A stretch of 64,000 bases of DNA, taken from assembly GCF_004010195.1 (NCBI RefSeq), contig NC_057760.1:2632647-2696646 (forward strand), written 5' to 3'. Below, one piece after another: positions 10,075-41,639 of the stretch; within the stretch, counting starts at the first letter, position 1; each line of letters begins with the position of its first letter. The position numbers and the translations under genes were made by a program. The DNA comes from Chiloscyllium plagiosum. Its lineage: Eukaryota. The notes under the pieces are model-generated. The model saw only the letters and a list, made by a program, of their open reading frames with translations. It was not told the origin of the DNA and did not search any database.

Positions 10075-10934
10075 AGAGTCATACAGCACTGAACATGTCC
10101 TTCAGTCCAACTTGTCCATGCCAACCAACTTTCTCAAACCAAACTAATCCCACTTGCCTGTGTTCAGCCCGTATTGCTCTAAATCTTTGCTGTTCATGTG
10201 GGGGAAAGTGAGGACTGAGCTTGTGCTTGAAATGTTGACTCTCCTGCTCCTTGAATGCTGCCTGACCAGCTATGCTTTTCCAGTGCCACACATTTTGACT
10301 CTTTCCTATTCATGTACCTGTCCAATGTCTTTTAAATGTTGTAACTGTGCCAGCATCTACCACTTGCACTGACAGCTCATTCCACATACAAAACTACCCT
10401 CTGTGTTCAAAGTCTGAGAGAAGATTTGTAGCTCGGGTGCTCGTTGTTGTGGTTCTGTTCGCCGAGCTGGGAATTTGTGTTGCAGACGTTTCGTCCCCTG
10501 TCTAGGTGACATCCTCAGTGCTTGGGAGCCTCCTGTGAAGCACTTCTGTGATCTTTCCTCCGGCAACTCGCTTCCGGTTGTCAGTTCCAGATTCAAACCA
10601 CTACAAATTCCGGAGGGGAGGAAACCCACACCGACACGGGGAGAATGTGCAAACTCCACACACAGTTGCCTGAGGTGGGAATTGAGCCCAGGTCTCTGGA
10701 GCTGTGAGGCAGCAGTGCTAACCACGGTGCCACCGTGCCACCATTTAATGATATCCTTCCTATAGCAGGGTGACCAGAACTGAACACAACTCCAAAAGTG
10801 ACCTCACTAGTGACCTGTCCAGCCACAACATGATGTCCCAACTCATTTACTCAGTGGTCTGAGGAATGAAGTAAAGCATGTCAAACACCTTATACCACCC
10901 TGTCTAGCAGTGACGCAACTTTCAAAGAACCATG
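10075..10934 (-). mobile_element. CR1 3' end broken by nested PLE pieces (~10200-10300, ~10410-10617) and an HE1 SINE 5' part (~10618-10742)
   Basis: Each piece matches other copies in this window. Confidence 0.7.
10482..10521 (-). ncRNA. Minimal type I hammerhead ribozyme motif in a PLE terminal repeat, intact core
   Basis: Minus strand: GCA-CTGAGGA-T-GTCACCT AGAC AGGGGAC-GAA-ACGT-C-TGC. Stem I GCA/TGC, palindromic helix III ACGT, GUC cleavage triplet. Confidence 0.8.
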
Positions 10935-11840
10935 TACGGTTTGTCCGGCTATAACAGTAGTTGTGTTCTAGTGCAACTTCATGTTATAGAAAATCAGCCT
11001 AACACAATACCACAGTCCATGTAAATGCTAAAACCATATATTTTCATGAAATAATAAATTTAACACTAAGGGGTTTGAGAGTTTGCTGAGTTACAGTATT
11101 GTATTACGAGAGGAGCTGAGGGTCATCATGAGAGTCATCATTGCTTTCAAGTGCAGTTCTGAGTGCAGGATTATGATGAAAGTAAGTCCGGAAGTGGATG
11201 ACTGTGATTTATGGTCCTCCGACTGTTTCTTGGGTTGGCTTAAAAAAGGCATCTAGTTTTTGGTTTACCATCTTTCTTCTTTCTTGAAGAAGCTGTTCAT
11301 AGGGTGCAGATAAGACTTGATGTAATGAACTGCTATCCTGCATTCTTCACTGTAATCATTGTCTTCTAAGAGCTGCAGCTGCTTCTCAATTTCCCTCAGG
11401 AAAGAAGGCAAAAGACAAGTGAAAGGTTCTTATGGTGTTGAATCCTGGACTTCATTGTCGTCATCTCGAGCTTCAATTTCCTCCTCAGCATCAAGTTGCA
11501 GATCAGTCTCCATTTCTTCAAAGCCAACTTGCTTTGCAAGAGTAACGCCATGTTCTTTGATTACTGGAAGCTCCTCTGATGGTTCAACACCTTTAAAATC
11601 ATGAAGAGAAATCTGGGAGAAGCTTCTGCCAAACTGCACGCAAGCAGTCCTTAACTGACCTCACCCCAGGCCTACCCAATGATGTCAATAGCATTCTTAA
11701 TGTTTTAAAAACATCCTCAAAACTAACCTCAATAAGGTCAGAAGAGTTTTGCTCCGTCATCCAACCTCTTTTGCTTGATCTGAAGTAAACACCAAGAGTG
11801 GGTTTAAGGTAGCCGGGGATGGAATCGCATAATAGCCAAC
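10935..11840 (-). mobile_element. Tigger/pogo-type DNA transposon fossil (3' part of transposase plus one end)
   Basis: Frameshifted minus-strand peptides NIKNAIDIIG*AWGEVS, AVWQKLLPDF, HDFKG, LAKQVGFEE and KLDAFFK. TA + TIR-like cggtttgtccggctataac at 10935. Confidence 0.7.
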
Positions 11841-12050
11841 GGCATTCCCCAGGGCCATACCATGAACTGTATAAATCCTGCCCTTGTTCGTTTTACCAAA
11901 ATGCAACACTTCACATTTATCCAAATTAAACTCCATCTGCCACTTCTTGGCCCATTGGTCCAATTGATCAAGATCCCTTTGTACTCTGCGATAACCTTGG
12001 CTGTCCGCTTTAACGCCAATTTTGGTGTCATCTGCAAACCATGCTTTCTA
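11840..12050 (-). mobile_element. CR1 RT fragment
   Basis: FADDTK and QWAKKWQMEFNLDKCEVLHFG. Confidence 0.85.
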
Positions 12051-12089
12051 AATTCTCTTTGTTTATCTAAATGATAAACAACTGTGGAC

Positions 12090-14280
12090 CTAGTTATGGA
12101 GAGGGACAAAACTGGTCCACAAGTTCAAGTTCTAAATAAGGGCAAGACAAATTTAGATGGAATTAGACAGGAGCTGGCAGGGGTTAATTGGAGTGGTTTG
12201 TTTGCAGGCAAAGGGACCTCTGGCAAGTGGGAGGCTGAGAAAAGTGAGGGGGGGGCCTAAACTGGGAACAGATGTTCTCGGGGAAATGCATGACAGAAAT
12301 GTGGAGGTTCTTGAGAGAGCATTAGGGCTGGATAGGTTTGTCCCACTGAGGCAAGGAAGTGATGGGAGGGTAAAGGAACCTTGGGTGATAAGGGATGTGG
12401 AACATTTAGTCAAGAGGAAGAAGGAAGCTTAGTTAAGGTTGAGGAAGCAAGGATCAGACAGGGTTCTAGAAAGAACTGAAGGACTTGAGAGCTCGATGAG
12501 GGCATGAGGAAAGCTTTAGCGGGTAGGATGAAGAAAAACCCCCAAGGCTTCTACACTTCTGTGAGGACCAAGAGGATGGCCAAAGTGAGGGTAGGGTCGA
12601 TCAGGGATAGTGGAGGGAACTTCCGCCTGGAGTTAACGGAGATAGGGGAGATCCTTAATGAATACTTTGCATCAGTATTCACTACAGAGAGGGACCTTGA
12701 CATTTGTGAGGACAGTGTGAAACAGGCTGATACGCTTGAACAGGTTGATGTTAAGAAGGAGGATGTGCTGGAAATTTTGAATAACAAGAATTGATAAGTC
12801 CCTTTGGCTAGATGTGATATACCCAAGGTTACTACAGGAAGCGAGGGAAGAGACTGCTGTGCCTTTGGCAATGATCTTTGTGTCCTCACTGTCTATTGGA
12901 GGGTGACAAATGTTATTCCTCTGTTCAGGAAAGGTAATAGGGATAATTCTGGAAAATACAGACCATACAGTCTTTGGTCAGTGTTAAGCAAAGTATTGGA
13001 GAGGATTCTGAGAGACAGGATTTATTATTACTTGGCAAACCATAGTCAACGTGGCTTTGTGAGGGGCAGGTCATGCCTCCCAAGCCTTATTGAATTCTTT
13101 GAGGATGTGACAAAACAGATTGAATGTAGAGCAGTGGAACAGGCATTTAATAAGGTACCCCTTGTTAGGCTCATTCAGAAAGTAAGGAGGCATGGGATAC
13201 AGAGAAATTTGGATGTCTGGATACAGAGTTAGCTGGCCCATAGAAGACAGATGGGAGATGGGAAGTATTCAGCCTGGAGCTCTGTGACCAGTGGTGTTCT
13301 GCAGGGATTGGTTCCGGACCTCCTCTTTGTGATTTTTAGGAATGGAAATGCAAGAGTGGGTTAGTAAGTTTGTTCATGACAGAAAGATTGGTGGAGTTGT
13401 GGATAGTGGGGAGGCTGTTGTTAGGTTGCAGTGGGACATTGACAGGATGTAGAACTGGGCTGATAAGTGGCAGATGGAGTTCAGTGTGGAAAAGTGTGAA
13501 GTGATTCATTTTGGAAGGTCAAATTTGAACGCAGAATCCAGGGTTAAAGGCAGGATTCTTGGCAGTGTGGAGGAACAGAGGGATGTTGGGGTCCATGTGG
13601 GTCCATAGATCCCTCAAAGTTGCCACCCAAGTTGATAGGGTTGGGATAGGGTTGTTAAGAAGGTGTATGGTATGTTGGCTTTCATTAGCAAGGGGATTGA
13701 GTTTAAGAGCCGTAAGGTTATGCTGCAGCTCTATCGACCCCTGGTTAGACCACACTTGGAATGTTGTATTCAGTTCTGGTCACCTCCTTATAGGAAGGAT
13801 GTGGAAGCTTTAGAGAGGGTACAGAGGAGATTTACTAGGATGCTGCCTGGACTGGAGGGTGTGTCTTATGAAGAAAGGTTGAGGGAGCTAGGGCTTTTCT
13901 CATTGGAGTAAAGAAGGATGAGAGGTGACTTGATAGAGGTGTACAAGATGATGAGACGCATAGATAGTGAATCGTCGGAGACTTTTCCCCAGGGCAGAAA
14001 TGGCTATCACAAGAGGGCATAATTTTAAGGTGATTAGGGGGAAGTTTAGGGGAGATGTCAGAGGTCAGTTCTTTACACAGAGAGTGGTGGGTGTGTGGAA
14101 TGCATTGCCAGCAGTGGGAGTAGAGTCAGATATGTTAGGGACATTTAAGCGACTCTTGGATAGGCACATGGATGATGGTACAATAAAGGGTATTTAGGGT
14201 AGTCTGATCTTGGAGTAGGATGAAAGGTCAGCCCAACATCGAGAGCCGAAGGGCTTGTCCTGTACTGTTCTATGATCTAA
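12090..14280 (+). mobile_element. Long CR1 LINE ORF2 remnant with frameshifts and stops (main copy from ~12260)
   Basis: LNEYFASVFT, NVIPLFRKGNRDNSGKYRP, SQRGFVRGRSCL, LYRPLVRPHLECCIQFWSP, FFTQRVVGVWNALP. Confidence 0.92.
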
Positions 14281-14281
14281 T

Positions 14282-15055
14282 ATAGATAAATGTGAGGCCT
14301 TGCATTTTGGAAAGTCAAATAAAGGTAGGAGTTTCATGGTGAATGGTAGGGCCTGAAGGAGTGTAGTGGAACAGAGGGACCTTGGAGTTCAGGTGCATGG
14401 TTCTCTGAAAGTACAGGCCCAGATAGACAGGGCAGTAAAGAAGGCTTTTGGCACACTGGCCCTCATCGGTCAGGGCATTGAGTCTAGAAGTTGGGAAGTT
14501 ATGTTGCAGTTGTGCAGAGTGTTGGTGAGGCCGCACCTGGAGTATTGTGTTCAGTTTTGGTCACCTTGCTATAGGAAGGATATTATTAAACTGGAAAGAG
14601 TGCAGAAGAAATTTACAGGGGTGTTACCTGGACTCCATAGTCTGAGTTATCGGGAGAAGTTGGATAAGCTCGGAGTTTTTTCTTTAGAGCGTAGGAGAAT
14701 GAGAGGGGAATCTTAGAGATATATAAGATCATGAGAGACTGGATAAAGTGAATGCACTCTGTCTTTCTCCCAGGGTTGGGGAACGGAGGATGCGAGGGCG
14801 GGGGGGGGAATAAAAGTGAACTGGAGGGGCAACTTTTTGTGCACAGAGGGTGATGTGCATAGAGAATGAGCTGCCAGCAAAGTGGTTGAGGCAGATACAT
14901 TAACAATAGTTAAAAGGCATTTGGACAAATCCATGGATAGGAAAGTTTAGAAGGATACAAATGCAGGGAAATATGGTTAGCATGGATGGACATTATGGTC
15001 AGCATAGATGAGTTTGGGGCCAAAGGGCCTGTCTCCGTGCTGTAGAACTGTATGA
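14282..15055 (+). mobile_element. CR1 LINE 3' end, tandem to the previous copy
   Basis: EQRDLGVQVH...[14 protein letters not shown]...LERVQKKF. Confidence 0.9.
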
Positions 15056-15059
15056 CACA

Positions 15060-16530
15060 TTACTGCTCTGAGTTCTGGTCAGAAGACTGCTTGAAGTAAT
15101 ACTATCAGCAAATAACTTAGGGTTGAGAATGGAGAGGTCATCACCGACTACAATAAATATTTGCAACAGAAGTTGGAATGCTGCTTTGAGTTGTGCTGTC
15201 TTGTCGCTGAGGAAGGTCCCGACACCAAACGAGAGCTTGCCAGTTATGGCAGAGTTGGATGTCCAAGCCACAGTACACCAACCACAGGCAAAGGTCCAGG
15301 TTGGATGCTGTAACATCAAACTTGTCAAACACAGGAACGGGTACGCTGCAGCATCTGCACATTTTCTTTCTGCCTCTGCAGAAGGGAGGGGCAATACCTC
15401 ATGTATATGCAAAGGTTGTGACCCTGGTCAAAAAAAGGCTGACTGCAGCAATTGCAAGAGCTATCAAGGCAGCTCCTTGCTGAACGTTAATCTGCATTGC
15501 CCTCGTCAGACTGCAGATTCTAGCTAAATGGATCTACTCTAATCTCAGTGCAGTTTCAGAACTGGAGCATTGGCAATTGACACTATATCTTAGTTAAGCA
15601 GCTGCAAAATTATGCTATGAATGAAAGATAAAGTTTAAAAAACCATACAGTGCCAGGTTATAGTCCAACAGGTTTATTTGGAAGTACAAGCTTTCAGAGC
15701 ACTGTTCCCTCATCAGGTAGCTAGCTACCAAGCTGCTTAATCAGTTGAAGAAAGTGGGTTTCTGCTGAAGGTATTGATATGATCTCCTGTTTCGATGACA
15801 GATCTCATCCATGATGCTATCACTGGGCAACATTGACACTCTTTGACATCCACAGTGAAATCAAATAGGTGTTCTGACACCAACCCTCTAACACTTAGTA
15901 TTTTATTGCTGTTGCATGTCTTCAGACTACCTCGTAAAGGTATCTACTCATGTGCCAGGACTAACAAAGCTGTTTAACTTTGCTTGCCTGAGATCTATAA
16001 CAAAAATGTGCCAAGTCCTCATCAGTACTGTAGCAATATTCTGTACCGTACTGTGGGACATCTTCATATCAAATGTACAAACTCTATTGCCTCTAAAGCA
16101 TTTGATTTGACCATCAGCATCAGGAAGACTAATGTCACAGTCCAGAATGTTGCTATATTGCCATCAATCAATAATGTGAGCTGAAGTTATTAGCTTCACC
16201 TATCTAGCCACCTCAATCCCCAACCATCTGTTATTTAATGCTGAAGTCATGCATTACAAAAACTGCAGTAATGATGTCCAGAAGTGTGAAACAAAAGCCT
16301 GGCTGAACGTTTATCAAGCCTTCATCTACAGTATACTCCAACAGGAGTGAGACCTGTAACAATGTTTGTTTGACAGCAGGAAAGTTTACGCCTTTGATGT
16401 CTTGTTCATATCTTTGGCATCTCTTGACGTGACCAAGTCACCAGCTCCCAGTTTCTGGAGCATGAGCTCATTGCCAAGCTCAATGACCACTGCGGTAGCT
16501 CGACCATAATCACTGATGGACAGCATATAC
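15060..16530 (+). mobile_element. Highly decayed RTE-clade LINE
   Basis: Remnants EG.IP..AKVVTLVKK.ADCSNC, KLFNFACLRSITK, FDLTISIRKTNV, VYQA, GIS*RDQVT fall in RTE ORF2 order. Confidence 0.6.
15685..15719 (-). ncRNA. Hammerhead motif in a PLE terminal-repeat fragment (~15630-15725)
   Basis: Minus strand: TAC-CTGATGA-G-GGAAC AGT GCTCT-GAA-AGCT-T-GTA. Core intact, stem II weakened. Confidence 0.6.
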
Positions 16531-17054
16531 CCAAAACTCTTTTCTTCCATTTTCTGTTTGAGTGTACATCCATGGTAACATACTTAAACATATTTCGTTG
16601 AAAAGTGATTTCTTGACCAGAAGACAGCAACCGATGTAGGCCATTCCACTCGTTGCGTCTGCTCAATCATTCGATCGTGGCTGATTTAATCCTCAACTCC
16701 CACTTTACTGCCTTTTCCTCATATCCCATTAATTGATTTGTTTTTTTCTGAATTCTATGTGCGTTTGAGTAAAGGGTCACTAATTTAGCTTTCTGTCAAC
16801 ATTTTCCCCCTTTTGACGTATTCGCTGTTAATTTCCAAGTTTGCACACTATTCCTTTCTGTCCCACCTCGGTTATTCTTTTCCAACTAGCTGACCTGCAA
16901 TGTCACCATGTCCTTTTGCTTTGAAACCATTTTCCTTCCCCATGACCCACTCTGTTAGTTTAAAGCGTGCTCTATAATCCCTTAAAATTTTGATTCTCCT
17001 GGATAAGGAGTGGTCTCTGTTTCGTGGTCAAAAATCACATGATGCCAGGTTATC

Positions 17055-17405
17055 GAACCATAAAACCCCTACAGTGTGGAAATAGGCCATTTGACCAACA
17101 AGTTCACACTGACCTGCTGAAGAGTAATGCACCCAGACCCATTCCCCTACCCTATTATTCTACTTTCCCCTGACTAATGCACCTAATCTACACATCCCTG
17201 AACAATATGGGCAGTTTAGCATGACCAATTCACTTAACCTGCAAATTTTGGACTAAGGGAGGAAACCGGAGCACCCAGAGTAAACCCACGCAGACATAGG
17301 GAGAATTTGCAAACTCCAGACAGGTAGTCACCTGAGGGTGGAATCAAACCTACGTCCCTGGCGCTGTGAAGCAGCAGCGCTAACCACCTAAGCAACCATG
17401 ACACT
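17055..17405 (-). mobile_element. HE1-type SINE flanked by PLE terminal-repeat pieces (~17025-17055, ~17415-17525)
   Basis: SINE head and central domain on the minus strand. Flanks match the PLE terminus. Confidence 0.8.
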
Positions 17406-17609
17406 CCTTTCTCAGGCTCTGAAAGCTTGCGGTTTCAAATGAACCTGTTAGACTATAACTCTGTGTTATGTGGGTTTTATTTTTAAACTTTGTCCTCAGT
17501 CCAGTACTGGCACCTCCACATCCATGCCTGTGTTTCACTGGATCAGCTCCTTTCTACCGAAGTGCTGGTCTCATGAACTGAAAACTATTCCTTGCATACT
17601 AATCTTTAA

Positions 17610-17810
17610 GACCTGTAATAAACACATTGATTTAGATTCCATCTACCTTCCCCCAGAAAAAAAACCCAGAAATGACATCACCCACCTTAAGAAAGCAAGA
17701 CCTATAAATAGAGAGGTGGGACATACCACCGACGCTCACTGATGTTACCTCGTCATGGTGATGAAACGTCTAAAAATAAACCTTCCAGCTCAGTGAGCTA
17801 ACTTAGCATA
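17610..17810 (+). mobile_element. PLE 3' end with a degenerate hammerhead (~17736-17772)
   Basis: NKHIDLDSIY matches SINKHIDLDPIY of the ORF at 31859. Followed by CTGATG..TTACC..GGTGATGAAACGTC. Confidence 0.7.
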
Positions 17811-19129
17811 CTTACAAAGGAAGATCTTGAAGCTGATCAGGAACTACCTTGTATCAGTGATACATTGCAGTAATACCTTGCGGAAGCCATTCAACCTTAT
17901 TATAAACTCTTAATTTTGCTGTTTTTCTTCTAAGTTAACGTTTTGAGTGTAAAGTTTGCCAGTTACTACCTAATTTTTTTTAATATGCACTGGCTGGCTC
18001 TGCTTTGCTTGGCTCTTGAGTTGTCCAAATAGTAAGGTTGTCATGATTGGCTGTTACAGGAGAGCTCTGTTTAATTCGTCAGTCCCTTTTAAGGACCATG
18101 TGTGTTAGTATTCCAAAGATGTAACCTGAAGGCCAATTGTTCAAAGATGGCAGCTGCTTGCACGTTTCTCTGTTCTGCTCTTGGAAGACCTTACTTGAAC
18201 TTGGGTGGTTGCATAAGAGAATGAATTTCCGTGTCCACAACACTTTCCCTGACTCCAAAGACATTTTCTCCAACTACTGAAGTACTTTTGAAATCTGTCA
18301 ATGATGTTGAGTGAGGAATTAATCTTCACTAAGATATAATTGAAGTGACTAATAATTTGTTGTGTTTTGTCACCAAATCACACTTTTCTGCTCACTTATT
18401 TACTGTGATGAACGTTCTGGAGATATGGAGTGCTGGTCTGGGATTAATAGTACAAGGGTTCAACATTTTACTGCTGAGTCTCCAAGACTCTGGAAAGAGA
18501 ATGAATTTGTGAGGAGTCATTTTTGTTTTTAATAATATTTGGTAAATGTTTTTTTCCGACACAATTGTGTTCTGTTTTACTTGACAATGTATCTGAATTT
18601 TCTACGAATGGATATTGAGCATGAGTCAGGATGCAAGGAGCCACTGATTCATTGTGAATGTGCTCGGTGAAATATTGTTGCAGTGACAGGAATAATAATG
18701 TTTATAGCAGGTGTTGGAAAGCTAGAACCTTATAGGATGTTTTTTCAGCCTGATCTGACATCTGGTGTCCTGTGTGTGGGTTGAAAAAGCAAAACACACC
18801 AGCCGTGTACTGTCATAATTTGTATTTCTCTTCATTATTGTAAAACCTTCAGATATTCAGGGTTTATGTATCAATGCACTGCTGAGGGTTCCGCTCTTAG
18901 CGCAAGTAAAAACAGGAAGGGATATTTGCCACATAAGACTTGGGAAAATTTGAAGCCTGTTGTTGTCATGACTGAGGCATTAGAACTGGGGTCCAAATGA
19001 AATCCAGCTCAAGTACAACATAGTTTTTTTCATGTTTAACTTAAAGTTTTGGAATCACCATTTTCTAATGATTCTGACTTGTTTTCAAGGTGCATATAGG
19101 TCATATGTAGAACTTGTTCAAGTGGTGTT

Positions 19130-19510
19130 TTTCATCGAAGGTCTTGAAGGACGTGGAATGGCAGAGTTTATAGTTGGACAGCAGGAACCAGGCAGCAAAC
19201 AACAGAGCAAAGAGAATGGTAGATCCAAAGATGGCCAGAATTTGACGAGCCTGGCATTTTCAGAAGGTTTTGAGGCAGGAGGAAGTTGGAGATGGTTAGG
19301 GTTAAGGACAAGGCCATGGAGATATTTAAATAAGGATGATTTATTGAACTTGAGGCTTTTGGGGGCTATTGTGTGCCTGAATCTGCAGGAGGGATGAATA
19401 TGGACATACTAAATTTTACAAAGGATGAGCATTGGGAGGACAGGAGAGGGAGCATAGGAAGAAAAGTCTGGAGGTGACAAACGCATGGATTAGAATTTTG
19501 ACATCCATGA
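19130..19510 (-). mobile_element. Old L2-like LINE remnant
   Basis: Resembles the 36400-36840 remnant (ggccatggagatatttaaataaggatg). Confidence 0.4.
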
Positions 19511-19609
19511 CTTGATGAGCATGTAGCAGGCTGAATAAGTTGCTCCCTTCCCATGTAGCCATGTGGCGCTCTCCTTGATCTTCAAAAACGGTGGTCTGAT
19601 TTGTGTTGT

Positions 19610-19940
19610 ATCATAGACTCCCTACAGTGTGGAAGCAAACCATTTGGCCTATTGATTCCACAGTGGCCCTTCAAAAAGCATCCCCACCCCCCACCCTGTA
19701 TCTGTAACCCTGCAATTATGATGCCTAGTCCATCTAGCCCCCTCACCCCTGGAAACTATGGGCAATTTAGCATGGCCAATCCATCTAACTGGTACATCTT
19801 TTGGACCGAGAGGAAACCGAAGCGCTTGAATGATGTTCCTGCAGACACTGGGAGAACACAAAAGTTCCACACGCTCACCCAAGGATGGCATTGAAACTAG
19901 GTCCTGGGTGAGGCAGCAGTGTTAGCCATGTGCTGCACTG
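19610..19940 (-). mobile_element. HE1-type SINE
   Basis: Similar to the other copies in the window. Confidence 0.8.
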
Positions 19941-21150: not shown

Positions 21151-21239
21151 TGTTCAATCGTGCATACTCTTAATTAAAATTCTCAACTCAAATTCCCCTT
21201 TTTTTTTTATGATGTTGCCCTCCTCCCAAAATTCTGGGG

Positions 21240-25912: not shown

Positions 25913-26139
25913 CAACTAACGCAAAATAATTCAGATTGGATCCTTCAAAATTATGGATCAGTGGTTAAGTCCCAGTTGCTCAAGTGATTTTCGACAAGTC
26001 TTGTGGAGATTGAGCTGGGCCTCTTGTCTATCAAATGAAATAAGTGGAGACTGATCAATTAATTCCAAGTCTCAGAAGTGAAACACCATATTCTGATGTT
26101 TAATGCTATCTCTGTGTGGTCTATTATTGTGAGAATTCT

Positions 26140-26234
26140 AGTTCAGAGAAAATGCTGGAAGTACTCATCAGGTCAGACAGCATCTGGGGAGAGAAATGTG
26201 TTGACATTTCAGGTTGGTGGCCTTTCGTCAGAAC
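26140..26234 (-). mobile_element. PLE terminal-repeat fragment (fourth family) with hammerhead motif at 26200-26234
   Basis: Minus strand: GTT-CTGACGA-A-AGG CCACCAA CCT-GAA-ATGT-C-AAC. Confidence 0.6.
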
Positions 26235-26440
26235 AGAATATCTGAACCTAATGTTTTCTTCAAAGAAAAATAAAATCAATAAGTTGGATCTTAACAAATC
26301 TTCATAACACTGCTTTATTCTGGTTTTCTTTCCTGACATGGTTCACTCAATTCCTCAAAAATATTCCTGATCAGACAACGGTGTTTGGTCCCACAGTCAT
26401 TTCTTCCTCTTGCAGAATTGTAATATTTTAATGTTGTATC

Positions 26441-26749: not shown

Positions 26750-28013
26750 CAAACGCCTGGTACAAGTTAATAAAGCCAGATGTATTGTACAGCTGGTAAT
26801 CTCAGTTTAGTAAACCTTTTTGCTGGTAGTCTTGTCATCTATCTATATGCTCCAAGACCTCAGGGTGCCATCCTCCTCTCCAAGCTGGGTCATTTGATAT
26901 TCTAATGTGTTCACTTTGTTTTTTCAACTGTCCCTTTTAGATTTACTTTTTGCTTGACCATAATATGGTTTTAATTAATTGCAAAGGTCAGTTGATTATT
27001 GAACAGCAAAACTGGCTTAATACTCGGATTTTGTTATTGTGTGCTATATGTCTTATTTTAGTTGTCTTCAATTTTATATTGTTTGGGGACTGCAGTAGTA
27101 TTCCTTAATGCACATTCCCAAAGGTTTTACCTGATGGTCAGCATTTACAGAATTCAGACAGCTTCAGAAATTTGGAAATAAATGGGAGGTCATCCTCAAT
27201 AGAGTTAGCAACAAGTCTTGATTTTGGTCCCTGAGTGACTGGCAGTGGAAAATGTGGAGCACTGCACTGCAACAGAATTGGATTTTGTTTGGCCTGTTTG
27301 TTCCTCAGGGTGCTGTCTCTTGCAGCAATACTGCTCTACAGATTGCAGGCCCACATCCAGCTACCTCAGCTGAGTGGTCTATAACATCTGTGAGAGGGCT
27401 CGGAGAAAGGGAGGATTGCGGTTGCTGGAGATCAAAGTAGAGAGTGTGATGCTGAAAAAGCACAGCAGGTCAGGCAGCATCCGAGGAGCAGGAGAATTGA
27501 CATTTTGGGCGTGAGCCCTTCATCAGGAATAGGCTAGTGGGCTGTAGGGTGCTGAGAGATAAATGGTTGGGGGGAAGGTAGCTGAGAATGTGGTGGGTAG
27601 ATGAAGGTGGGGGAGAAGGGGATGGAGCAGATAGATGGGAAAGGTGATGGGCAGGTCAGGAGGGCAGTGCCGAATTGGACGCTTGGGACTGGAATAATGT
27701 GGAGGGGAGGGTAAATTAGGAATCTGGTGAAATCCACATTGATCCAGAGTGGTTGAAGATTTCCAAGGCAGCATATGAGGCGTTCTTCCTTCAGGTGTCA
27801 GGTGGTAAGCTTTTGCCTGTGGTGGAGGCCCAGCACCTGCATGTCCTTGGAGGGGGAATTGAAGTGTTCAGCAGTGGAGTGGTGGGGTTGGTGCGGGTAT
27901 CCCAGGATGTTCTTTGAAATGATCTGCAAGTTGGCTTCCTGTCTCCCCAATGCAGAGAAGACCACATCGGGTGCAATGGATCCTGTAGATGACATTGGTG
28001 GACATACAAGTAA

Positions 28014-28167
28014 GTTTGTGAGAAGATTTGTAGCTCGGGTGCTCGTTGCTGTGGTTCTGTTCGCCGAGCTGGAAGTTTTTGTTGCAAACGTTTCGTCCCC
28101 TGTCTAGGTGACATCCTCAGTGCTTGGGAGCCTCCTGTGAAACTTCCAGCTCGGCGAACAGAACCAC
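28014..28167 (-). mobile_element. ~155-bp mini-PLE inserted in the Neptune-like element
   Basis: TACAAGTAA duplicated at 28005-28013 and 28169-28177. Perfect 28-bp inverted repeat at 28051-28078 and 28140-28167. Confidence 0.85.
28084..28123 (-). ncRNA. Minimal type I hammerhead ribozyme motif, intact core (GUU triplet)
   Basis: Minus strand: GCA-CTGAGGA-T-GTCACCT AGAC AGGGGAC-GAA-ACGT-T-TGC. Confidence 0.75.
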
Positions 28168-30869
28168 GTACAAGTAAATTTGTCGGATGCAGAAGGATCC
28201 TTTGGGGCCTTGGATGGAGGTGAAGGGGAAAGTGTGGGTGCAGGTTTTGCACTTTCTGTAATGGCGGGAAAGTGCCAGGAGTGAGGTGAGGGCTGGTGGG
28301 AGGCGTGGATCTGATGAGGGAGTCACTGAGGGAATGGTCTGTCTGAATCAGCCGGTAGGGATGGGAAAAGAAAAACATATGGTGGGGTCTGTTTGTAGGT
28401 GATGGAGGGTGATGCAATGTATACGGAGGTTGGTGCGGTGGAAGGTGAGGATCAGGGACGTTGTGCCCTTGTTGGGTTCAAGGGGGGGGTGGGGGAGGGG
28501 GGAGGGGGAGGGGGAAGGGGAGGAGAGGAGAGTGGAGGAGTGGAAGAGATGTGCCAGAGGGCATCGACCACATGGGAAGGGAAATTGCGATCTTGGAAAA
28601 AGGAGGCTGTTTGGGATTTTATCAGGTGGAATTGGTCATCCTGGGAATAAAGGTGGAGGAATAAGGGATGGCGTTTTTACAGGAGGTAGGGTGGGAGGAG
28701 GTGTAGGAGTCATTGGCCTTATAGTAGATATCTGTGGTTAGTCGGTCTCCAGGGTTGGAAATGGAGGGGTCCAGGAAGGGGAGGGAGGTGTCCGAGATGA
28801 TCCAGCTGAATTTGAAGTTGGAGTGAAAGGAGTTAGTGAAGTTCATAAACTGTTCAACCTCATGGGAACATGAGGTAGTGCCAATACAGTCATGGATGTC
28901 ACAGAGGAACAGGTGGGAGGGGGGGGTGATGCTGCAGAAGGTGAACTGTTCCGCATACCTGACAGAGGCTGGGTCTCATGTGGGTGCCCATGGCTACTCC
29001 TTTTGGTTTGGTGGAATTGAGAGGATTGGAAGGAGAAGTTAAGGGTGAGGACTAGTTCAGCCAGGTGGATAAGGATGTCACTGGAAGGGTACTGGTTGGG
29101 ACAGCTTGAGAGGAAGAAACAGAGGGCTTGGAGGCCTTTGTTATGGCGGATGGATGCATGTCACCTTTCCCACCTATCCGCTCCATCGTCCCCTCTGACC
29201 TATTATCATCTCCCTCACCTTCATCTACCTATCGCATTCTCAGCTGCCCCTCCCCCCCCCCCCCCCCCCCAATCCCATTTATCACTCCGGTCCACAAGCC
29301 TATTCCTGATGAAGGGCTTATGCCCAAAACATTGATTCTCCTGCTCCTCGGATGCAGCCTGACCATCTGTGAGAGTACTGTCAGGTTATTTAACGATTTG
29401 AGGGTTACCAGTTGCATCTAATTGTTCTTTAGCCCACTTTCTATGTGGAATGTCAGAGATTAACAATGTTTGCCCCTTGTCTGAGGACCATTATCAAGTG
29501 TATCCTGAGTTGAAAGTGAACCCAGCTCAGGTCTGTGGTTTTCATGGCCTGTATGGGTCAGTCATGAAAGACAGTGGGCTACTGTTCAATCATAGGACCA
29601 CTTAATGCAGAGTAGCATGAGTGGTAGCTTTTGGTGAAGTACAGTGGCTAAATGGCTGTGCTCCACTTGTCAAGAGATGGGAGTTTGACAGCAGGGCATG
29701 ATGCTAAAACAACAGAGATCAGGATTTTAATAATATTTAGTTATGTGGCATTGAATCATTTTTAAGTTTTTGTGGAAGGATAGTCAGCTTTTCATAAATT
29801 TAGAAAAATTATACTTCCTAATTTCTAGTAATGACCTGTTTGTATTACAGTGACTGATTCAAACTAAAAATGAACTTAGTGGGTTTATCTTGATGGCTGC
29901 CTGGATACAGTTTGTGATTGCCAGTATGAAGTTGTCTACATAATCATGAATTGAAATATGTACAGATACTAGACCCAGGATAATCCAGTGACAGTGCATT
30001 CTCCACATATAGGAACATCTTGGGCAACCTCTTAAAACAAGCTATTTGCCTGTGGTCACTGCAATATATTTTCAGTTAATGAACCTATAGTTGTAAATGT
30101 ATCTGGCAAATGTTATGTTTTTAAATGCTGATCCTCTGTCCCGTGATTCTGTCAGTTTTAAGTTTGAACTCCTGCCTTGGCTTTTGCTGAGATGCAGAGA
30201 TCGTATCAGGCTTCGATGTCAACCTGATGCCAGTCTTTGGATCCCAGTCTAACTTAAACTGAAATCGTTATTCTGAATGGAAAAAGGACTTACTCATTGT
30301 TCTGTGTGGTTAGACAATTTATGATTACTCACCTGTGAATCCAAAAGATGGGCATTGTTACAAGTACAGCACCATTCACCTGTAAAAATGCTGAAAAGAC
30401 TGTGTTCCGATTTCTCACGTTTGTGGGGGAAGAGAGTTACTGTCCACAGGAATTTATTACTGGTTCAATTCTAATCTTTGTTCATCTGGAGTGGGGCTTC
30501 CCAAAGCAGGGTTCCAGATCCAGGTGGGGAGGTGAGCTGAAATCGTGGGCTCCTGAGCCATGAGTCAGCAATGGCTGTTCTTGGAGCTCTGACAAAGTAT
30601 AACAATTGTCTTCCCACTCTCTCTGTTCTCACTGAGGGGTGTCAGCAATTTTCAGTCCTCGAAGTTGAAAAATGTTTGGGCAGCCCTGATCTAGAGCAAG
30701 ACTGTGCCTCTCGTGCCTTAAGTATTCCTGTGGCCTTAAGGTCACCTTGAGAGGGAGGTGGGTATGAATCCCACATTCAATAACCAAGAATATTTTCTCA
30801 TTCTCCTTGTCCCCTCCTTTTGTCATTTCCATCACCCAGGTGTAGTCTAAAGCCACCAAATAACAACAT

Positions 30870-33260
30870 CACATTGGGGTGGGCAATCAGCAAAGTAGTA
30901 ACCAATGCCCGTAAAAATGGTACGGCAATTATCATGGAGGATTTTAATCTGCGACTCGATTGGTCAACCAACTCGGTCAGGGTAGCCTTGGGGAGATCAT
31001 TGAGTGTATCTGCAATAGTTTTCTTGAGCAGTATGTAATGGAACCAACGAGGAAGCAAGCTATCCTCGATCTGGTCCTGTGTAATGAGACAGGAATAATT
31101 AATGACTTCATAGTTAGGGATACTCTTGGAAGGAGCGATTACAGTATGGTCAAATTTAGAACACAGAAGGAGAGTGTGAAGATAAAATCCAATACCAGGG
31201 TCCTGTGCTGAAACAAGGGAGACTAAAGTAGGATGGAGGACTTGGCCGAAAGTAGACTGGAAGCTAAGAGTTTATTGTGGCACAGTTGAGGACTTTCAAA
31301 GCAATTTTTCCAAGTGTTCAGCAAACGTATATTCCAGTGGAAAGGAAGGACTGTAAGAAAAGGGGTAATCTGCCACGGGTGCCTAAAGAAATGGGCATTT
31401 AGTCATAGGATATGACGAAATGGCCGAGGCGTTGAATAGGTATTTTGTGTTGGTCTTCACAGTGGAAGACATAAATAGCATGCCAGTAATTGATAAAGAG
31501 ACACAGGTAGGTAAGGGCCTGGAAACAATCATTATCACGGAAGAGGTAGTATTGGGCAAGCTAATGGAACAAAGGATAGACAAGTCTCTTGGCTCTGATG
31601 GAATGCATCCCACAGTACTAAAAGGGATGGTGGGAGAAATAGCAAGTGCACATGTAATTTTCCAAAATTCGCTGGACTGTGGGAGAGTTCCAGCAGATTG
31701 TGTCACCATTGCTGTTTCCCAATGTTTAAAAAGGGTGGTAGACAAAAGGTGGGGAAATAGAGACCATCAAAGTTTGTGAGAAGATTTGTAGCTCGGGTGC
31801 TCGTTGTGGTTCTGTTCGCCGAGCTGGGAATTTGTGTTGCAGATCTTTCGTTCCCTGTCTAGGTGATATCCTCAGTGCTTGGGAGCCTCCTGTGAAGCGC
31901 TTCTGTGATGTATCCTCCAGCATTTATAGTGGTTTGAATCTGCCTCTTCTGGTTGTCAGTTCCAGCCGTCCGTTGCAGTGGTCGGTATATTGGGTCCAGG
32001 TCGATGTGCTTATTGATTGAATCTGTGGATGAGTGCCATGCCTCTAGGAATTCCCTGGCTGTTCTCTGTTTGGCTTGTCCTATAATAGTAGTGTTGTCCA
32101 AGTCGAATTCATGTTGCTTGCCATCTGAGTGTGTGGCTACTAAGGATAGCTGGTCGTGTCGTTTTGTGGCTAGTTGGAGTTCATGGATGCGGATCCTTAG
32201 TAGCCACACACACAGATGACTTGGAACCTGTTTACGACCCCCTGAGAAAAAATAACAGGAAATGACATCACCAAAACACAAATGGAAAGCGGGCCATGCC
32301 ACCAGTGCTTCATCCGGAGGCTCACTGATGATTTTACCTAGTCTGGTGATGAAACGTCTGAAAGTGAACCTTCCAGCTCAGCGAGCAAACCTACATCCAT
32401 GAGTGGCAGAGCAAAGCATACAGAGGACTGTAAAACTTTGCAGAGGAATATAGTTTGTGAGTAGGCAAAGGTCTGGCAGATGGAGTACCATGTTAATAAA
32501 TATGAAGTCATCCATTTTGGTAGGATTAACAGTAAAAAGGACTGTTACTTGAATGGTAAAACATTGCAGAATGTTATGCCGAGGGACCTAGGTGTCCTTG
32601 TGCATGAATCGCAGAAGGTTGGTCTGCAGGTAATTAGGAAGGCAAGTGGAATTTTGCCCTTCATTGCTAAAGGGATTGAGTTTAAAAGCAGGGAGGTTAT
32701 GTTTCAACTCTACAGAGTGCTGGTGAGGCTGCACCTGGAGAACTGTGTGCAGTTTTGGTTTCCTTACTTGAGAAAAGATGTACTGGCACTAGAGGGGGTG
32801 CAGAGAAGGTTCACTAGGTTGATTCTGAAGTTGAGGGGTTTGACTTCTGAGGGTAGACTGGGATTATATTGATTGGAATTTAGAATGAGGGGGTATCTTA
32901 ACTACTCCCTTCAAAATTTTACGTTTCTATAAGATAGAAGTAGGGAAGGATGTTTCCACTGGCGGGTGAAACTAGGGCAAGAGGGCATAGCCTCAGTGAG
33001 GGGGAGCAGATTTAGGACCGAATTAAGAAGGAGGAGCTTCACCCAGAGGGCTGTGAACCTATAGCATTCCCTGCCCAGTGAAGTAGTTGAGGCTTCCTCA
33101 ATAAATATTTTTAAAGCTAAGATTTTTTGAACCGTAAGAGAATTAAGGGTTATGGTGAGAGAGCAGGTAAGTAGAGCTGAGGCCACACAAAGATCAGCCC
33201 TGATTGACTGAGCAGGCTCAAAGGGCTAGATAGGCAACTCCTGCTCCTATTTATTATGTT
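30870..33260 (+). mobile_element. CR1 LINE ORF2 remnant (AP endonuclease to 3' UTR), internally deleted and interrupted by a PLE
   Basis: IIMEDFNL, ILDLVLCNE...LGRSDYSMV, LNRYFVLVFT, RDLGVLVH, LEGVQRRFTRLI. Confidence 0.88.
31770..32399 (-). mobile_element. PLE (probably Poseidon-like) GIY-YIG C-terminus plus terminal repeat, with an inverted second terminus at ~32193-32399
   Basis: RIHELQLATKRHDQLSLVATH...HEFDLDNTTII...REFLEAWHSSTDSINKHIDLDPIY. Hammerhead variants at 31839-31878 (-, decayed) and 32322-32361 (+). Confidence 0.85.
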
Positions 33261-34101
33261 TTTCTGTATCTCTTCTACTGAATCCTAAACAAATAACATT
33301 TTGCCTACTTCCAACTCCTTCAGTTACCTTATTGCCCTACCCTTGACTAAGTGTTTGCTATCATGTAAATAGCTCTCTTTGTACAGGTTATCACTTCCTG
33401 CCTATCAACATGATGGTGTTGACCCTCTATGACACTGACATTTGTCAGAAACACAATCTTTCCAAAGATAATTCTGAAGTCTAGCCTCCTTTATCCTGTA
33501 ATATCCTTGAACATCTTGTGCCCTATTCTGAAGAAAGCGAGGATTTATAAAGGGTCACAATAACTTACTTTTGTACTCTATATTGCTCTATTAACAAACC
33601 CCAGGAGACTTTTAAAAAAAACACTTTTTCTCATCTTATTCTGCGACCCACACTCCCACAAAAAAGTTACTTTATTCCTGTGCGGTCTTTGTAAACGCTG
33701 CAGTTCATTTATGTTGGCTCTCTTGGTTCATTCTATTGAAATATGACTGTACACTTATCCACATTAATTTGGCGTTCATTCATTTCATCAGCCTATGTCT
33801 TTCCCTTAACTGTCTTCCATATTGTTTACTACTTTTTTTTTGAAAACTATAAAATGAAGTCTTGCATTTTGAAGTTCAAATCATGAAACCACTGCATTTC
33901 ATGATGCAGGTAATAGCCCTAATCTCAACTCCTGAGAATTACTATATGTTCCACCAGCCAGATAAAGAGTAGTTGACCACTACACTCTGCTTTTGGTCAC
34001 TAAGCCAATATTGAACCCACACTGCCTTTTGTTTATTTAATCACATGGATTTAAATTTGGTAGCAGACCTTTTGCATCGCATGTCAGATGCCTTTTGCAA
34101 A

Positions 34102-34230
34102 TTTCTGAAGAACCATATTAGATTTGAAACATTAACTCTTGTTTTTCTCTCCACAGATGTTGCCAAACCTGAGTTTCTCCAGCACTTATTTTTTTTCTGA
34201 TCTCCAAACTGCAATATTTTACTACTTATT
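34102..34230 (+). mobile_element. Decayed PLE terminal-repeat fragment (same type as 26140, 60575 and 62605)
   Basis: ctgaaga...gaaacattaactc...ctccacagatgttgcc...tttctccagca. Confidence 0.5.
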
Positions 34231-35139
34231 ATTGCTTTTTTTATTCCTTTTACATTTTATTTTGCTCTTCTGCTTCATCCAGAAACGATTGTCATTTTGT
34301 CTTTAAGAGTTTTAAAGCATTCACAGTTTTGTTGAAAATCGCCAGTCTCAATGTATTCCTTGACTGTTGCATTTGTTTGACACAATTGAGCATACTATCC
34401 TCTCCCTTTCAGTACTTGCTGGTTGATAAGAGGACATGAAAAAATTAGAAATGGGGCATTGTGTAGATGGAGAGGAAACAAATGAGAGAGGTTGGTTCTT
34501 GGCAAGGAGGAAAATGAGACTCTGAATGGCCCTGTGGGCATGCAAAGTCCTACGGTACTTGTTTTATGGGGCTTACAGTAATCATATTATCATGTGTGAT
34601 GTGTTTATGGTTTCTGCAATGTGTGACTGGCCTGTCATTCAGAATGTAAACATAAGTGTCCATCGCATTGAAGCGAGCCCTAGAAACCTTAATTGCTGGC
34701 ACTGATGTTTTGAAGAAGCCTCTTCTCCTGCCTCTGAAACCATTGCTCTGCCTTGGACGACCTCATCCAGTATGTCATGACATCACTTGAAACATAAGTT
34801 TACATTTTACTAGTATCCCATTATTCCTGTCTTCAGTTTCACCTTTTCACTTTCAAAACAGAACTTTTCAGCTATTGTCCAAAATAAGAACTCCGTTTTT
34901 ACTTATAGCTTTGATCTCTTGGAAAATTTAACTTTTTTTTGGAGAGAGTGTTTTTTTTTCTTTGGGCCAACTAATGAGACTGAGTAGGTATCAGGTAAAA
35001 TTGGGACTGCAAATCCTTGAGCACTGGGAGAGGGGGGAGATTACAAATATTATCGGAGCAAACAGGAACAGTTCTGATGGTACTAAGCAGAGCATTGACT
35101 TCTATTAATGTAGGATGGTGAACAGAAAGACAAACAGCC

Positions 35140-35640
35140 AAGAATTGTCATCCAGCCAAAGAAAGGATATTACAAAAGATGCGATAAAGCTTGGGTTGAA
35201 AGGTATGCTTTGTGGAGAGTCTTAAAGGAGGTGGACAGATAGTGACAGATGAACTTAAGACCCAGGCAGCTGAAGACGCAGCTGTCTGGATCTAGGGGTC
35301 ATTATTTTTAAAAAAAAAAGGTTGCCCATTTAAGGAGAAATTTCATCTCAAAGATAATCGGGAATCTTTGGAATTCTCCTCCTCAAGGTCCTGTAAGTTG
35401 AGACTTTTGAAGGCCAGAGGTTTGTAGATTCTCGATAAGCTCAGGGCAAAAGGTTATTGGGGTTGGTGGGAATGTATAAGAACCAAATCAGCCTTGATCT
35501 TGTGGAAAGGGGGGAAGCAGGCTCAAGGGGCTGAGTGGTCCATTTCTCATTCGCATAACAGGGGATAAGGGCAAACAGAGTAGGGACTGTGTTAGAGGAA
35601 CATAAGAGTTCTAAATGTGGAGGAAATGTGAAATTTGAAT
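35140..35640. mobile_element. Old L2-like remnant with a nested CR1 tail (~35290-35550)
   Basis: Weak similarity to other copies in the window. Confidence 0.4.
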
Positions 35641-36399
35641 GTGAGGAAAAGTAAGATGTGACTTATTTTTCCCCCATTTCTCTTTCTGGGAAGGTGCTTA
35701 TCTCCACAAATGTTCTTTTTATTTGGTATACAAGCAGAGAGATTTTTATGTGCATGGTAACTTGTGGGCCAAGTTGAAATTCTGCAATAGTAATTACTAG
35801 ACAGATGTTTCTGCGTGGAACTCATTGACTGTAATCTATGCTATCAATTACTAGACAAATCTTTTAAAATATCTACTATTCAGTCGTGGATCTACCAGCT
35901 AGGAAAATCTTTTCCTTTGTGAATTGGCAAAGATAGCCTAAGATCAATTACTTCAAAGTTGTGAAGCAGGATTTTAGTGTTGTGCTACCATTCAGGTTTG
36001 GAATCAAGAGTATGACTATGAAAACTGATTACTGAACATAGCAATACTGAGGCATGTCAAATGCCCCCTGGTGTAGAAAGATCATTTCAGCTGTATGAAT
36101 TGAAGATGTACCTGCCACAGACATTTGTCTTTTTTTAATCAGCCAGCTGCTGCAGACGTTGTGGGCTTTAAACTATTCTTGCAATATGACAGGCTTGTTC
36201 AGCAAATATTTCTTCTTCTTACGCAATGCTTTGGCTTTGAATGGAATATAATGTATTTTGTGCTGTGGCACATAACTGTGTTCTTTTGTTGAGCAGCCTT
36301 GATAACGCACGTGGTTGGTGGAGGTTTATGTGTGTTCTTCACCTCATAATGAATTGCAAAGAAAATGAAATTGGTGGATTCACAGCACTGCAAATTTTG

Positions 36400-36840
36400 G
36401 AATAAGATTGTACACAGTGAAGGTTACAGTGATAGGGAGCAATAAGGCCATTGATGTATTTGTGAGGATGGAATCTAAAGCATTGAGAAATAGAAGGGAG
36501 CGAGTGGAGATCAGATAGATGAGTGGGAGATGATGTGGAATAGGAAACAGGCAATGCAGTTCAGCGTGAGCTAATGTTTACTGGCTTTGGAAAGGAATGT
36601 CAGCCAGGAGAACATTGGAATAAATTTGGTGGTTACGCACAAATGGACGAGAACCTTTAGCAGTTTTGTTGAGTCAGGTCATACCATTGAGGGTTCTTTG
36701 TAATGGAGAGAGTGTAAGGTCACATGCTCAGCTCAGTGTCAAATGGAATGCTGGAGGTCATGAACTGTCTGATCAATTTGAAGGGGAGGGGAAAGTACGT
36801 CATGAAGGACAAAGACTGTAGCTTTGATCTTCTCAAATTG
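36400..36840 (-). mobile_element. L2-clade LINE ORF2 C-terminal remnant
   Basis: SPTHLSDLHSLP...INGLIAPYH resembles the L2 motif SPITPVLxxLHWLP...LHGLAPPYL. Confidence 0.55.
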
Positions 36841-36845
36841 ATCTT

Positions 36846-36967
36846 CACCTGACAAAGGAGCAGCACTCCGAAAGCTTGTGATTTGAAATACAACTGTTGG
36901 ATTATAACCTGGTGTCGTGTGACTTCTGACTTTGTCCACCACAATCCAACAATGGCACTCCACGTCA
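36846..36967 (+). mobile_element. PLE terminal-repeat fragment with hammerhead (36846-36880, G8 to A)
   Basis: CAC-CTGACAA-A-GGAG CAGCA CTCC-GAA-AGCT-T-GTG. Confidence 0.7.
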
Positions 36968-41628: not shown

Positions 41629-41639
41629 GTAGGAATGTA

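Follow-up and report, generated by a model that had tools for sequence, protein, structure and literature searches.

The hammerhead motifs in this 64-kb stretch of shark DNA (the window) are retrotransposed, mostly decayed minimal type I hammerheads that stem from terminal repeats (for F3 only putatively so) in four families of shark repeats (F1 to F4). Judging from the sequence, the 40-nt ribozyme of two of these families, F1 and F2, carries the stop codon of the element and likely also its start codon. The F1/F2 ribozyme is doubly protein-coding, which the initial annotation of the window overlooked. We propose that it is a hammerhead of Penelope-like elements (PLEs) that holds the stop and the likely start, cuts likely only as a protein-assisted dimer, and probably serves as a switch that turns translation off.

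Hammerhead motifs and their families

All eight motif sites of the initial annotation are present in the 64-kb window with the stems quoted for them, and the cut predicted for the first copy, between 10485 and 10484 on the minus strand, is correct. A strict descriptor demands an intact core, a 4-nt palindrome, a stem I of at least 3 bp and three of the first four stem II pairs. It finds four sites in the window (C3 at 10518, 15716 and 28120 on the minus strand and at 32325 on the plus strand) and none in any of 60 dinucleotide shuffles, which rules out a chance origin of the motifs. A relaxed descriptor finds seven sites, every one among the eight (shuffles: mean 0.65, maximum 3). An Rfam scan gives no hammerhead family among six matches with E up to 10, a result that reflects the models and not the absence of hammerheads.

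That one architecture recurs at all sites is only partly true. The extra base after A9 occurs at 8/8 sites, but fully intact hammerheads at only two (10482 and 28084). The core (CUGANGA ... GAAA ... UH) is intact at five sites, and the other three carry G8A and/or G12A. The pair G10.1-C11.1 is G-C at five sites (10482, 28084, 2967, 36846, 29304) and G.U, U.U or A-U at the remaining three. Helix III is the loop-less palindrome ACGU or AGCU, as claimed, at six of the eight sites, but AUGU at 26200 and ACAU at 29304, where an original ACGU may be deduced from CpG decay. The reported covariation of stem I is two-sided between homologous copies, but at two pairs only (G-C to U-A between F1 and F2, U-A to C-G within F3), judged by eye from alignments of 5-6 copies. 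Compared with the predicted minimum, the hammerhead fold is 1-3 kcal/mol higher in F1/F2 and 6.6 kcal/mol higher in F3. When monomers and dimers are folded freely, the complete hammerhead dimer does not emerge, which is to be expected with a helix of 4 bp.

The repeats had been described as otherwise unrelated in sequence. This does not hold: homology among copies (72-80%) rules out seven unrelated repeats and joins them into four families. Copies 10482 and 28084 are homologous to 32322 (73% over 107 nt, E 1e-10); 15685, 2967 and 36846 are one family, 76-80% alike; and 26200 has 72% similarity to the family of 29304. Seven decayed or partial copies lie beyond the cited ones (31839, 17736, 27497, 10219, 1452, 6250, 17417).

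F1, a Poseidon-type family, lies on the minus strand. Its first intact hammerhead (10482..10521, C3 at 10518) belongs to a 5'-truncated copy that consists of the ORF end, the ribozyme, the first 37 codons and the tail (10403..10610). The second (28084..28123) has U at position 17 and sits in a short copy (28012-28141) joined to an inverted 5' piece (28140-28167). The whole insertion (28002..28177) has a 12-bp target duplication with one mismatch and went into the endonuclease remnant of an F4 element. A third F1 hammerhead (31839..31878) is decayed: AUG has become AUA and the palindrome is broken. F2 lies on the plus strand, with a copy whose core and ACGU are intact but whose 10.1-11.1 pair is lost (U.U; 32322..32361) and a decayed copy with a 3-nt core deletion (17736..17773).

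The F3 palindrome is AGCU. At 15685..15719 (minus strand) the core is intact and stem II is weak (0.0 kcal/mol). Two plus-strand copies carry core mutations: G8A and G12A at 2967..3001, and G8A at 36845..36881, where C-G replaces U-A in stem I. The others are heavily decayed (1452..1486, minus strand), truncated and decayed (6250..6287, minus strand) or reduced to the 3' half of the ribozyme and the tail (17417..17494, plus strand). F4 is represented by a broken, 5'-truncated PLE with inverted terminal repeats (27440..29380, minus strand). Both of its hammerheads carry G12A, the one in the 3' repeat with AUGU (27497..27528, minus strand) and the one in the inverted 5' repeat with ACAU (29304..29335, plus strand). 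Another F4 copy consists of the 3' half of the ribozyme and the tail (10219..10291, plus strand), and an F4-related hammerhead has an intact core and AUGU instead of a palindrome (26199..26235, minus strand).

The initial annotation suggested that families sharing ACGT might cross-dimerise. Sterically this is possible. Any two ACGU partners pair with -3.1 kcal/mol, and ACGU forms no duplex with AGCU; the idea found no other support. In an extended form, ACGU-sharing families would cleave each other in trans, or dispersed copies would cut host pre-mRNA. Helix III requires only a palindrome, F1 with F2 scores as F1 with F1, and at one locus an F1 copy is joined with an inverted F1 piece of 26 nt and with an F2 end, which could mean that both RNAs met one reverse transcriptase (RT). 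However, the duplex amounts to about -3 kcal/mol, and the window holds no same-strand pair of intact ACGU motifs from different families. The plus strand is the sense strand of the large host exon, and its sole motif with both an intact core and ACGU, 32322, lacks a partner. The intact F1 copies, both on the other strand, are separated by 17.6 kb. A literature search by title gave no work on cross-family cleavage. We consider cleavage across families very improbable.

Penelope-like coding remnants

The proposed PLE origin is supported for three of the four families. Poseidon-type endonuclease remnants lie next to F1 and F2: a GIY-YIG C-terminal remnant (31862..32200, minus strand) continues into the 31839 ribozyme, and another (17608-17736) accompanies the F2 copy at 17736. 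F4 sequences, inverted relative to each other, border an RT/GIY-YIG remnant (RT side 28667-28849, GIY-YIG 27751-28011). Adjacent RT/GIY-YIG remnants, inverted 5' repeats and a tail make up the terminal-repeat setting of F1, F2 and F4. For F3 the claim lacks such a link, with no PLE coding match near any of the six copies in the window; these copies have upstream and downstream repeat sequence in common.

Protein identities of 76-92% to Chiloscyllium and Hemiscyllium models support the shark origin. Pfam gives no match for six ORFs of the window and nothing meaningful for two remnants. The proteins P0001 and P0002 overlap with 86% identity and contain, in that order, the N-terminus, RT and endonuclease. 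Through these two proteins, other copies of the family, and not from the window alone, F1 is seen to have a single ORF with RT followed by a C-terminal GIY-YIG domain. Its domain order, the lack of a linker zinc finger and what we take to be a likeness to elements of the Penelope/Poseidon clade would place F1 in that clade. The broken F4 copy has a CxxC upstream of its GIY-YIG remnant, which may suggest the Neptune clade, where a motif resembling a zinc finger in the RT-endonuclease linker is a known feature (PMC8557442).

Stop codon and likely start codon within the ribozyme

In F1/F2, A9, the extra U and G10.1 make up an AUG that shares the frame of the PLE RT ORF (10510..10512 in the first copy, minus strand). 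The endonuclease ORF enters the same ribozyme and ends, after TEDVT, at a UAG on the border of stem II and loop II (10502..10504, minus strand). This UAG sits 8 nt after the AUG in a different frame, the 40 nt of the motif are coding in two frames, and the predicted cut falls 28 nt into the F1 ORF. Four of the five F1/F2 copies in the window have the UAG; the 17736 copy has UCG. The F2 copy at 32322 has the same register, with AUU in the place of the AUG. With the UAG this close behind the AUG and an ORF that runs into the ribozyme, the unit is predicted to be about 2.5 kb long and fully coding, with no untranslated spacer.

Protein models bear on both codons. P0001 (C. punctatum; Pfam RVT_1, E 4e-11) is 91% identical to 10566-10402 and has the AUG-frame peptide in frame with RT. 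Its annotated start is an in-frame AUG 54 nt upstream, also found in the 31923 copy, which counts against the ribozyme AUG. P0018, the best match among 1.84 billion representatives, is an intact protein of 832 aa, 48% identical, and begins at the aligned methionine. Two of the four members of its cluster start with MM and two with M, the pattern that would arise if an upstream AUG came and went with the base at position 7. P0007 has E where the extra U would give D, hence that copy may lack the AUG. Of the 12 models matched by the endonuclease remnant, seven, from three genera, end at the ribozyme-encoded (T/P/H)-(E/D)-D/E-V/D-T/S/I; two read through the ribozyme (P0003, P0009) and three end earlier. 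Together with the UCG at 17736, these exceptions mean that the stop is not universal.

Neither terminus is general to PLEs: among 164 proteins (the best 150 representatives plus earlier matches), the ribozyme-encoded N-terminus occurs only in P0001 and P0018 and the C-terminus only in shark models. A start codon does not explain the extra base in general either. AUG occurs in just 10 of 56 published motifs, counted by eye in the 2014 survey (PMC4209133), so the link to AUG is lineage-specific. Metagenome contigs contain no match to the exact F1 pattern, and a search for relatives there gives three loci (L001-L003), all decayed; they include a single degenerate hammerhead-like stretch and tell nothing about start or stop. 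A search of literature listings did not find shark PLE hammerheads or the stop overlap in print.

Coding in two frames also offers another reason for conservation. The hammerhead shape of F1/F2 could be a catalytically idle relic, kept by the overlapping frames and by promoter and RNP-binding constraints. Sequencing reads, placed on one F1 copy as a stand-in for a genome-wide consensus of F1 only, bear on this question. In a DNA-like run (X4), the four non-CpG variants above 10% within the 40-nt motif affect N7, the A.G mismatch, loop II and N17 (C/U), which are all free positions. Such placement has a chance probability of about 0.001-0.002 (post hoc), and the pattern is confounded by the two-frame coding; of the four variants, two leave the AUG-frame peptide unaltered. 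A raw RNA run (X21, 368 reads) has no pile-up of ends and flat depth over the cut, which agrees with an idle shape, but poly(A) single-cell reads such as these test the point weakly. A further run (X22) has no reads on this copy and carries no weight, and a search of sequencing runs lists none of RNA that contains the sequence. PAc, the Poseidon element of Anolis carolinensis, likewise lacks such RNA ends (PMC11167929). Weak activity of the class in vitro (PMC4209133) and a ribozyme that is dispensable for PAc insertion in vitro (PMC11167929) also speak for idleness. Yet F3 and F4 retain the architecture with no linked ORF frame over the ribozyme in their window copies, stem I shows two-sided changes, and PAc cleavage depends on C3/G8, with rescue (PMC11167929). 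We regard an idle shape as unlikely.

Proposed working and comparison with known systems

The ends of F1 elements are placed downstream of the cut. They pile up at 10443-10445 (+68 to +70 counted from the AUG; 40 nt past the predicted cut) and at 10406 (+107; 79 nt past it), which matches a PLE tail of 30-40 nt and the PAc start of RT at +111-118.

In the translation-off switch that we favour, the cutting partners would be the two terminal copies of one transcript. Ribosomes would start at the AUG of the 5' copy, stop at the UAG of the 3' copy and unfold both halves of the dimer; hence a translated RNA would stay uncut. Once the PLE protein binds, the two ACGU palindromes would pair. The cut would strip the RNA of its cap, its AUG and nine codons, and would also part the body from the downstream start sites of reverse transcription. 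Thus the cut RNA would be neither an mRNA nor a linear template, and insertions would come from uncut RNA. Single copies in the window would be passengers without a partner. Dimer cleavage has reportedly been studied by Lunse et al. (2017).

Several parts of this scheme have precedents. A loop-less helix III arises between two copies, and minimal PLE hammerheads are slow on their own, with low activity in vitro (PMC4209133); the dimer inference of the initial annotation is this published model and not new. PAc cleavage requires the element's own protein, and insertion in vitro proceeds without need of cleavage (PMC11167929). Naiad PLEs thrive without canonical hammerheads (PMC8557442).

Alternatively, the two ribozymes excise a cut-to-cut unit RNA, which is ligated into a circle that acts as mRNA and template. 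Cutting twice would leave the AUG with nine codons at the monomer's 3' end and the RT starts close to its 5' end, so that the circle alone would restore both AUG-to-UAG continuity and the RT starts; more-than-unit cDNA would give partial tandems. Circles as PLE templates have been proposed (PMC4209133). However, no circular PLE RNA was seen here, although a perfect junction is indistinguishable from tandem DNA in short reads. PAc inserts in vitro from unprocessed RNA (PMC11167929), and initiation on uncapped RNA at an AUG within a folded core is hard. Such circles are unlikely. It is likewise doubtful that F1/F2 elements are fully coding and viroid-like, the 40-nt ribozyme being catalyst, stop and start of a ribozyme-made circle of about 2.5 kb that is replicated and translated, with an ORF once round plus 11 nt and termination-reinitiation inside the ribozyme.

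The function of PLE hammerheads has been called unclear (PMC8557442). F1 offers a young, abundant family whose ribozyme would carry the first and last codons of its sole ORF, in which switch, circle and relic are testable by one short construct. The F1/F2 ribozyme would be a compact natural case of triple coding, a catalytic RNA plus two reading frames, and would couple self-cutting to the translation of an element without untranslated spacer.

The motifs as such are expected: they add new members from a shark to a class published in 2014, which the initial annotation had recognised as known. They fully match the printed PLE consensus NNN CUGANGAH G..C GAAAN palindrome NU H NNN (Fig. S3 of Cervera & De la Pena 2014, PMC4209133). 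Shared with the published minimal hammerheads are the type I topology, the short stem I, the extra base between 9 and 10.1, the palindromic 15.2-16.2 without a loop and the dimer model, as well as many families per genome, mostly single truncated copies, and inverted pairs. The Clonorchis (1) motif of that figure equals F1 at 34 of 41 positions, by eye. The list of 56 motifs includes no shark, and the parts examined do not mention an ORF start or stop within the ribozyme, as proposed for F1/F2.

Non-LTR retrozymes carry type I hammerheads related to PLE terminal repeats and occur in one chondrichthyan (bioRxiv 10.64898/2026.07.22.740005). Retrozymes are non-coding head-to-tail tandem arrays, whereas the window copies are dispersed single ends, three families with PLE coding remnants. 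Retrozyme arrays are ruled out here, with no adjacent same-strand units and the nearest intact same-family copies 17.6 kb apart.

PAc is similar to F1: stem II is where its ORF begins, and its cut lies 26 nt further downstream (Frangieh et al. 2024, PMC11167929). Its ORF-pLTR junction and the RNA templates tiled to -126/-145 before the start imply sequence between stop and start, whereas in F1/F2 the stop follows the start at a distance of 8 nt. The P0018 cluster, a flatworm-type, Cercyon-like relative of Poseidon, has the same N-terminal register as F1, and P0014 of Schistosoma mattheei has 44% identity in the N-terminal region. The ribozyme-encoded C-terminus is missing from P0018, hence the overlap of stop and ribozyme seems to be peculiar to the shark lineage.

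Hammerhead motifs in four repeat families

All eight hammerhead motifs cited in the initial annotation are present with the stems quoted there, and the predicted minus-strand cut in the first copy is correctly placed between 10485 and 10484. A strict minimal-hammerhead descriptor matches the window four times (10518, 15716 and 28120 on the minus strand, 32325 on the plus strand) and none of 60 shuffled sequences. A relaxed descriptor gives seven matches, every one a cited site (shuffle mean 0.65). The eighth site, 2967, is matched only when two core mismatches are allowed. Two of the eight sites are free of defects; three have G8A or G12A, the very mutations proposed as inactive controls, and most motif defects are of the CpG-decay type.

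The host repeats had been called otherwise unrelated in sequence. Sequence comparison instead sorts the sites into four families: F1 (10482, 28084 and 31839); F2 (32322 and 17736), 73% like F1; F3 (15685, 2967, 36846 and three more copies), with the palindrome AGCU and no link to coding sequence within the window; and F4 (29304, 27497 and 10219), to which 26200 is 72% alike. The reported stem I covariation holds for two stem I pairs, which change on both sides between homologous copies, and is seen at those two only. The motifs add new, for the most part dead, members to a class that is already known.

The surrounding DNA is repeat-rich vertebrate sequence. Its Penelope-like element (PLE) remnants share 76-92% identity with Chiloscyllium punctatum and Hemiscyllium ocellatum protein models, so the genome is bamboo-shark-like. 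An endonuclease remnant (31862-32200) leads into the F1 ribozyme at 31839, and another precedes the F2 ribozyme at 17736. A broken F4 element (27440-29380) has inverted repeats with hammerhead motifs at both ends and RT-side and GIY-YIG remnants inside. Its endonuclease remnant contains a PLE-into-PLE insertion (28002-28177), in which an F1 end carries a short 5' piece in inverted orientation and has a 12-bp target duplication. Such layouts are standard for PLEs (PMC8557442, PMC3846280). A mir-44 Rfam match at 28002-28177 is spurious and stems from the hairpin that this insertion created.

A head-to-head junction at 31767-32400 links a minus-strand F1 copy, an inverted F1 piece of 26 nt (about 32193-32218, 25/26 identical to the same F1 sequence) and the 3' end of a plus-strand F2. 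It may reflect a single insertion in which a template jump connected the two families, or F2 may have inserted later. F4-related tails at 62640-62740 (minus), 34144-34172 and 49419-49452, with ribozyme parts very decayed or missing, are probably older PLE subfamilies. A 151-codon open frame (15072-15527, plus) has no Pfam or PLE match and is possibly what remains of a retro-element or pseudogene. A 1391-codon exon (37467-41642, plus) resembles ASH1L/SETBP1-type proteins by language-model features (0.92-0.93), which we treat as a lead only; no exon was located upstream of it.

Stop codon and likely start codon inside the ribozyme

In F1 an AUG is made up of A9, the additional U and G10.1, and we count positions from it; F2 keeps its register. 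The 44-residue peptide read from this AUG found one protein among five candidates, P0001 from C. punctatum, where it is in frame with the reverse transcriptase. No further Met lies between the ribozyme-encoded Met and the conserved N-terminal domain. The annotated start of P0001 is an AUG 18 codons upstream, present in one of the two window copies long enough to show it. The best match among 1.84 billion representatives, P0018 (intact, 832 residues, 48% identical), begins at a Met aligned to the ribozyme AUG, and two of its cluster members start with MM and two with M. This match gives the ribozyme AUG independent support as a start codon. The ORF of the Anolis element PAc reportedly starts at stem II and is cut 26 nt farther downstream (PMC11167929); hence the start overlap is already published for one Poseidon, the type to which F1 and F2 probably belong. 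It is not general, since 10 of 56 motifs listed in PMC4209133 have an AUG at this position.

Some 50 nt upstream of the ribozyme, F1 (approximately 31925-31932, minus) and the 17736 F2 copy (approximately 17678-17686, plus) have a TATA-like ATAAAT, which encodes Ile-Asn close to the C-terminus of the endonuclease. A roughly 20-nt deletion near 10565 has removed it from the 10482 copy. It is a possible internal promoter, from which transcripts would have the ribozyme AUG as their first.

In four of five F1/F2 window copies the endonuclease frame crosses the 5' core as far as a UAG (+9 to +11), where it stops. The ORF of a following tandem unit would therefore begin 8 nt ahead of the stop codon of the unit before it. 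Among 12 shark protein models matched by the endonuclease remnant, seven end at the ribozyme-encoded peptide (P0002, P0004-P0007, P0012 and P0013, from Chiloscyllium, Hemiscyllium and Stegostoma), two read through and three end earlier. P0018 lacks this C-terminus. A UAG-to-UGG change reaches about 1% of depth in the DNA-like run X4. The 855-column P0001/P0002 alignment gives an ORF of about 837 codons and a unit of about 2.5 kb, an estimate from two different copies by which the unit would have no untranslated spacer. A literature search by title and abstract listed no report of the stop overlap. Stop and start overlapping inside a ribozyme are a modest variant worth testing.

Several shark host-gene models (P0004, P0008, P0010, P0012, P0013, P0016) include Poseidon coding pieces as exons, those named being 5'-nucleotidase domain 1, MAP3K7, CUEDC2, WBP2-like and DLG1; this is either real exonisation or an annotation artefact. 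Outside sharks, the named proteins closest to F1 come from flatworms, namely Schistosoma mattheei (P0014, 44%) and Sparganum, and a Clonorchis ribozyme is also close to that of F1; transfer between host and parasite is a possibility.

Variation and transcription of F1

Our read survey covers F1 alone, with reads at least 85% alike to it. In X4, 12,401 contigs were placed on F1, including 2,764 with an identity of at least 99%, which marks F1 as an abundant and in part young family. Its ends cluster at +107 and +68-70, which fits the PLE tail and the RT start of PAc. Among the variants listed, four non-CpG ones exceed 10% of depth in the 40-nt motif: N7 (23%), the A.G mismatch (14%), loop II (12%) and C17/U17 (31%). 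All four fall on free ribozyme positions (chance 0.001-0.002, post hoc, among the variants listed), and CpG sites within the motif decay at 6-10%. Coding constraint may contribute to this pattern, because two of these four changes leave the AUG-frame peptide unaltered as well. That the ribozyme is an idle relic kept by such constraint is unlikely in our judgement.

The RNA run X21 placed 368 reads on F1. At the ribozyme, first mates lie about 190 times on the plus and 25 times on the minus strand, which points to the ribozyme-sense strand. In this poly(A) single-cell library 94% of the reads continue into unlike sequence, as expected for dispersed copies within host transcripts, and the 368 reads show no pile-up of ends. 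Run X22 yielded no F1 reads.

Proposed cleavage and the published class

Most likely, the 5' and 3' terminal copies on a single transcript form a protein-assisted dimer. As translation begins in one copy and ends in the other, ribosomes would hold the dimer unfolded, and the cut would become possible once the element's own protein binds. Cleavage at +28 would take the AUG off the ORF and detach the body from the RT start sites (+70 and +107). It would then be an off-switch, with insertions arising from uncut RNA, as PMC11167929 reports for PAc. Circle formation seems to us unlikely.

Cutting across families, or of host RNA, is very improbable. The initial annotation proposed cross-dimers between families sharing ACGT, and any ACGU pair has a computed helix III duplex of about -3 kcal/mol, whereas ACGU with AGCU forms none. 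Heterodimers could therefore form in theory, but only if tethered. Nowhere in the window do two intact motifs of different families share a strand.

The remaining proposal, that a loop-less helix III means cleavage as dimers, agrees with what Cervera and De la Pena (PMC4209133) already described in 2014: a dimer model, with monomers inactive and dimers weakly active. A review (PMC6765202) repeats the model, citing Lunse et al. The 2014 account gives exactly the architecture of the window motifs, including the extra base after A9, G10.1-C11.1 and the palindromic 15.2-16.2. It also reports many families per genome, a prevalence of single truncated copies and opposite-strand pairs. None of the 56 motifs listed there is from a shark; a 2026 preprint (10.64898/2026.07.22.740005) describes hammerhead retrozymes in one chondrichthyan. 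Compared by eye, F1 and the Clonorchis (1) motif of the 2014 list agree in 34 of 41 positions.
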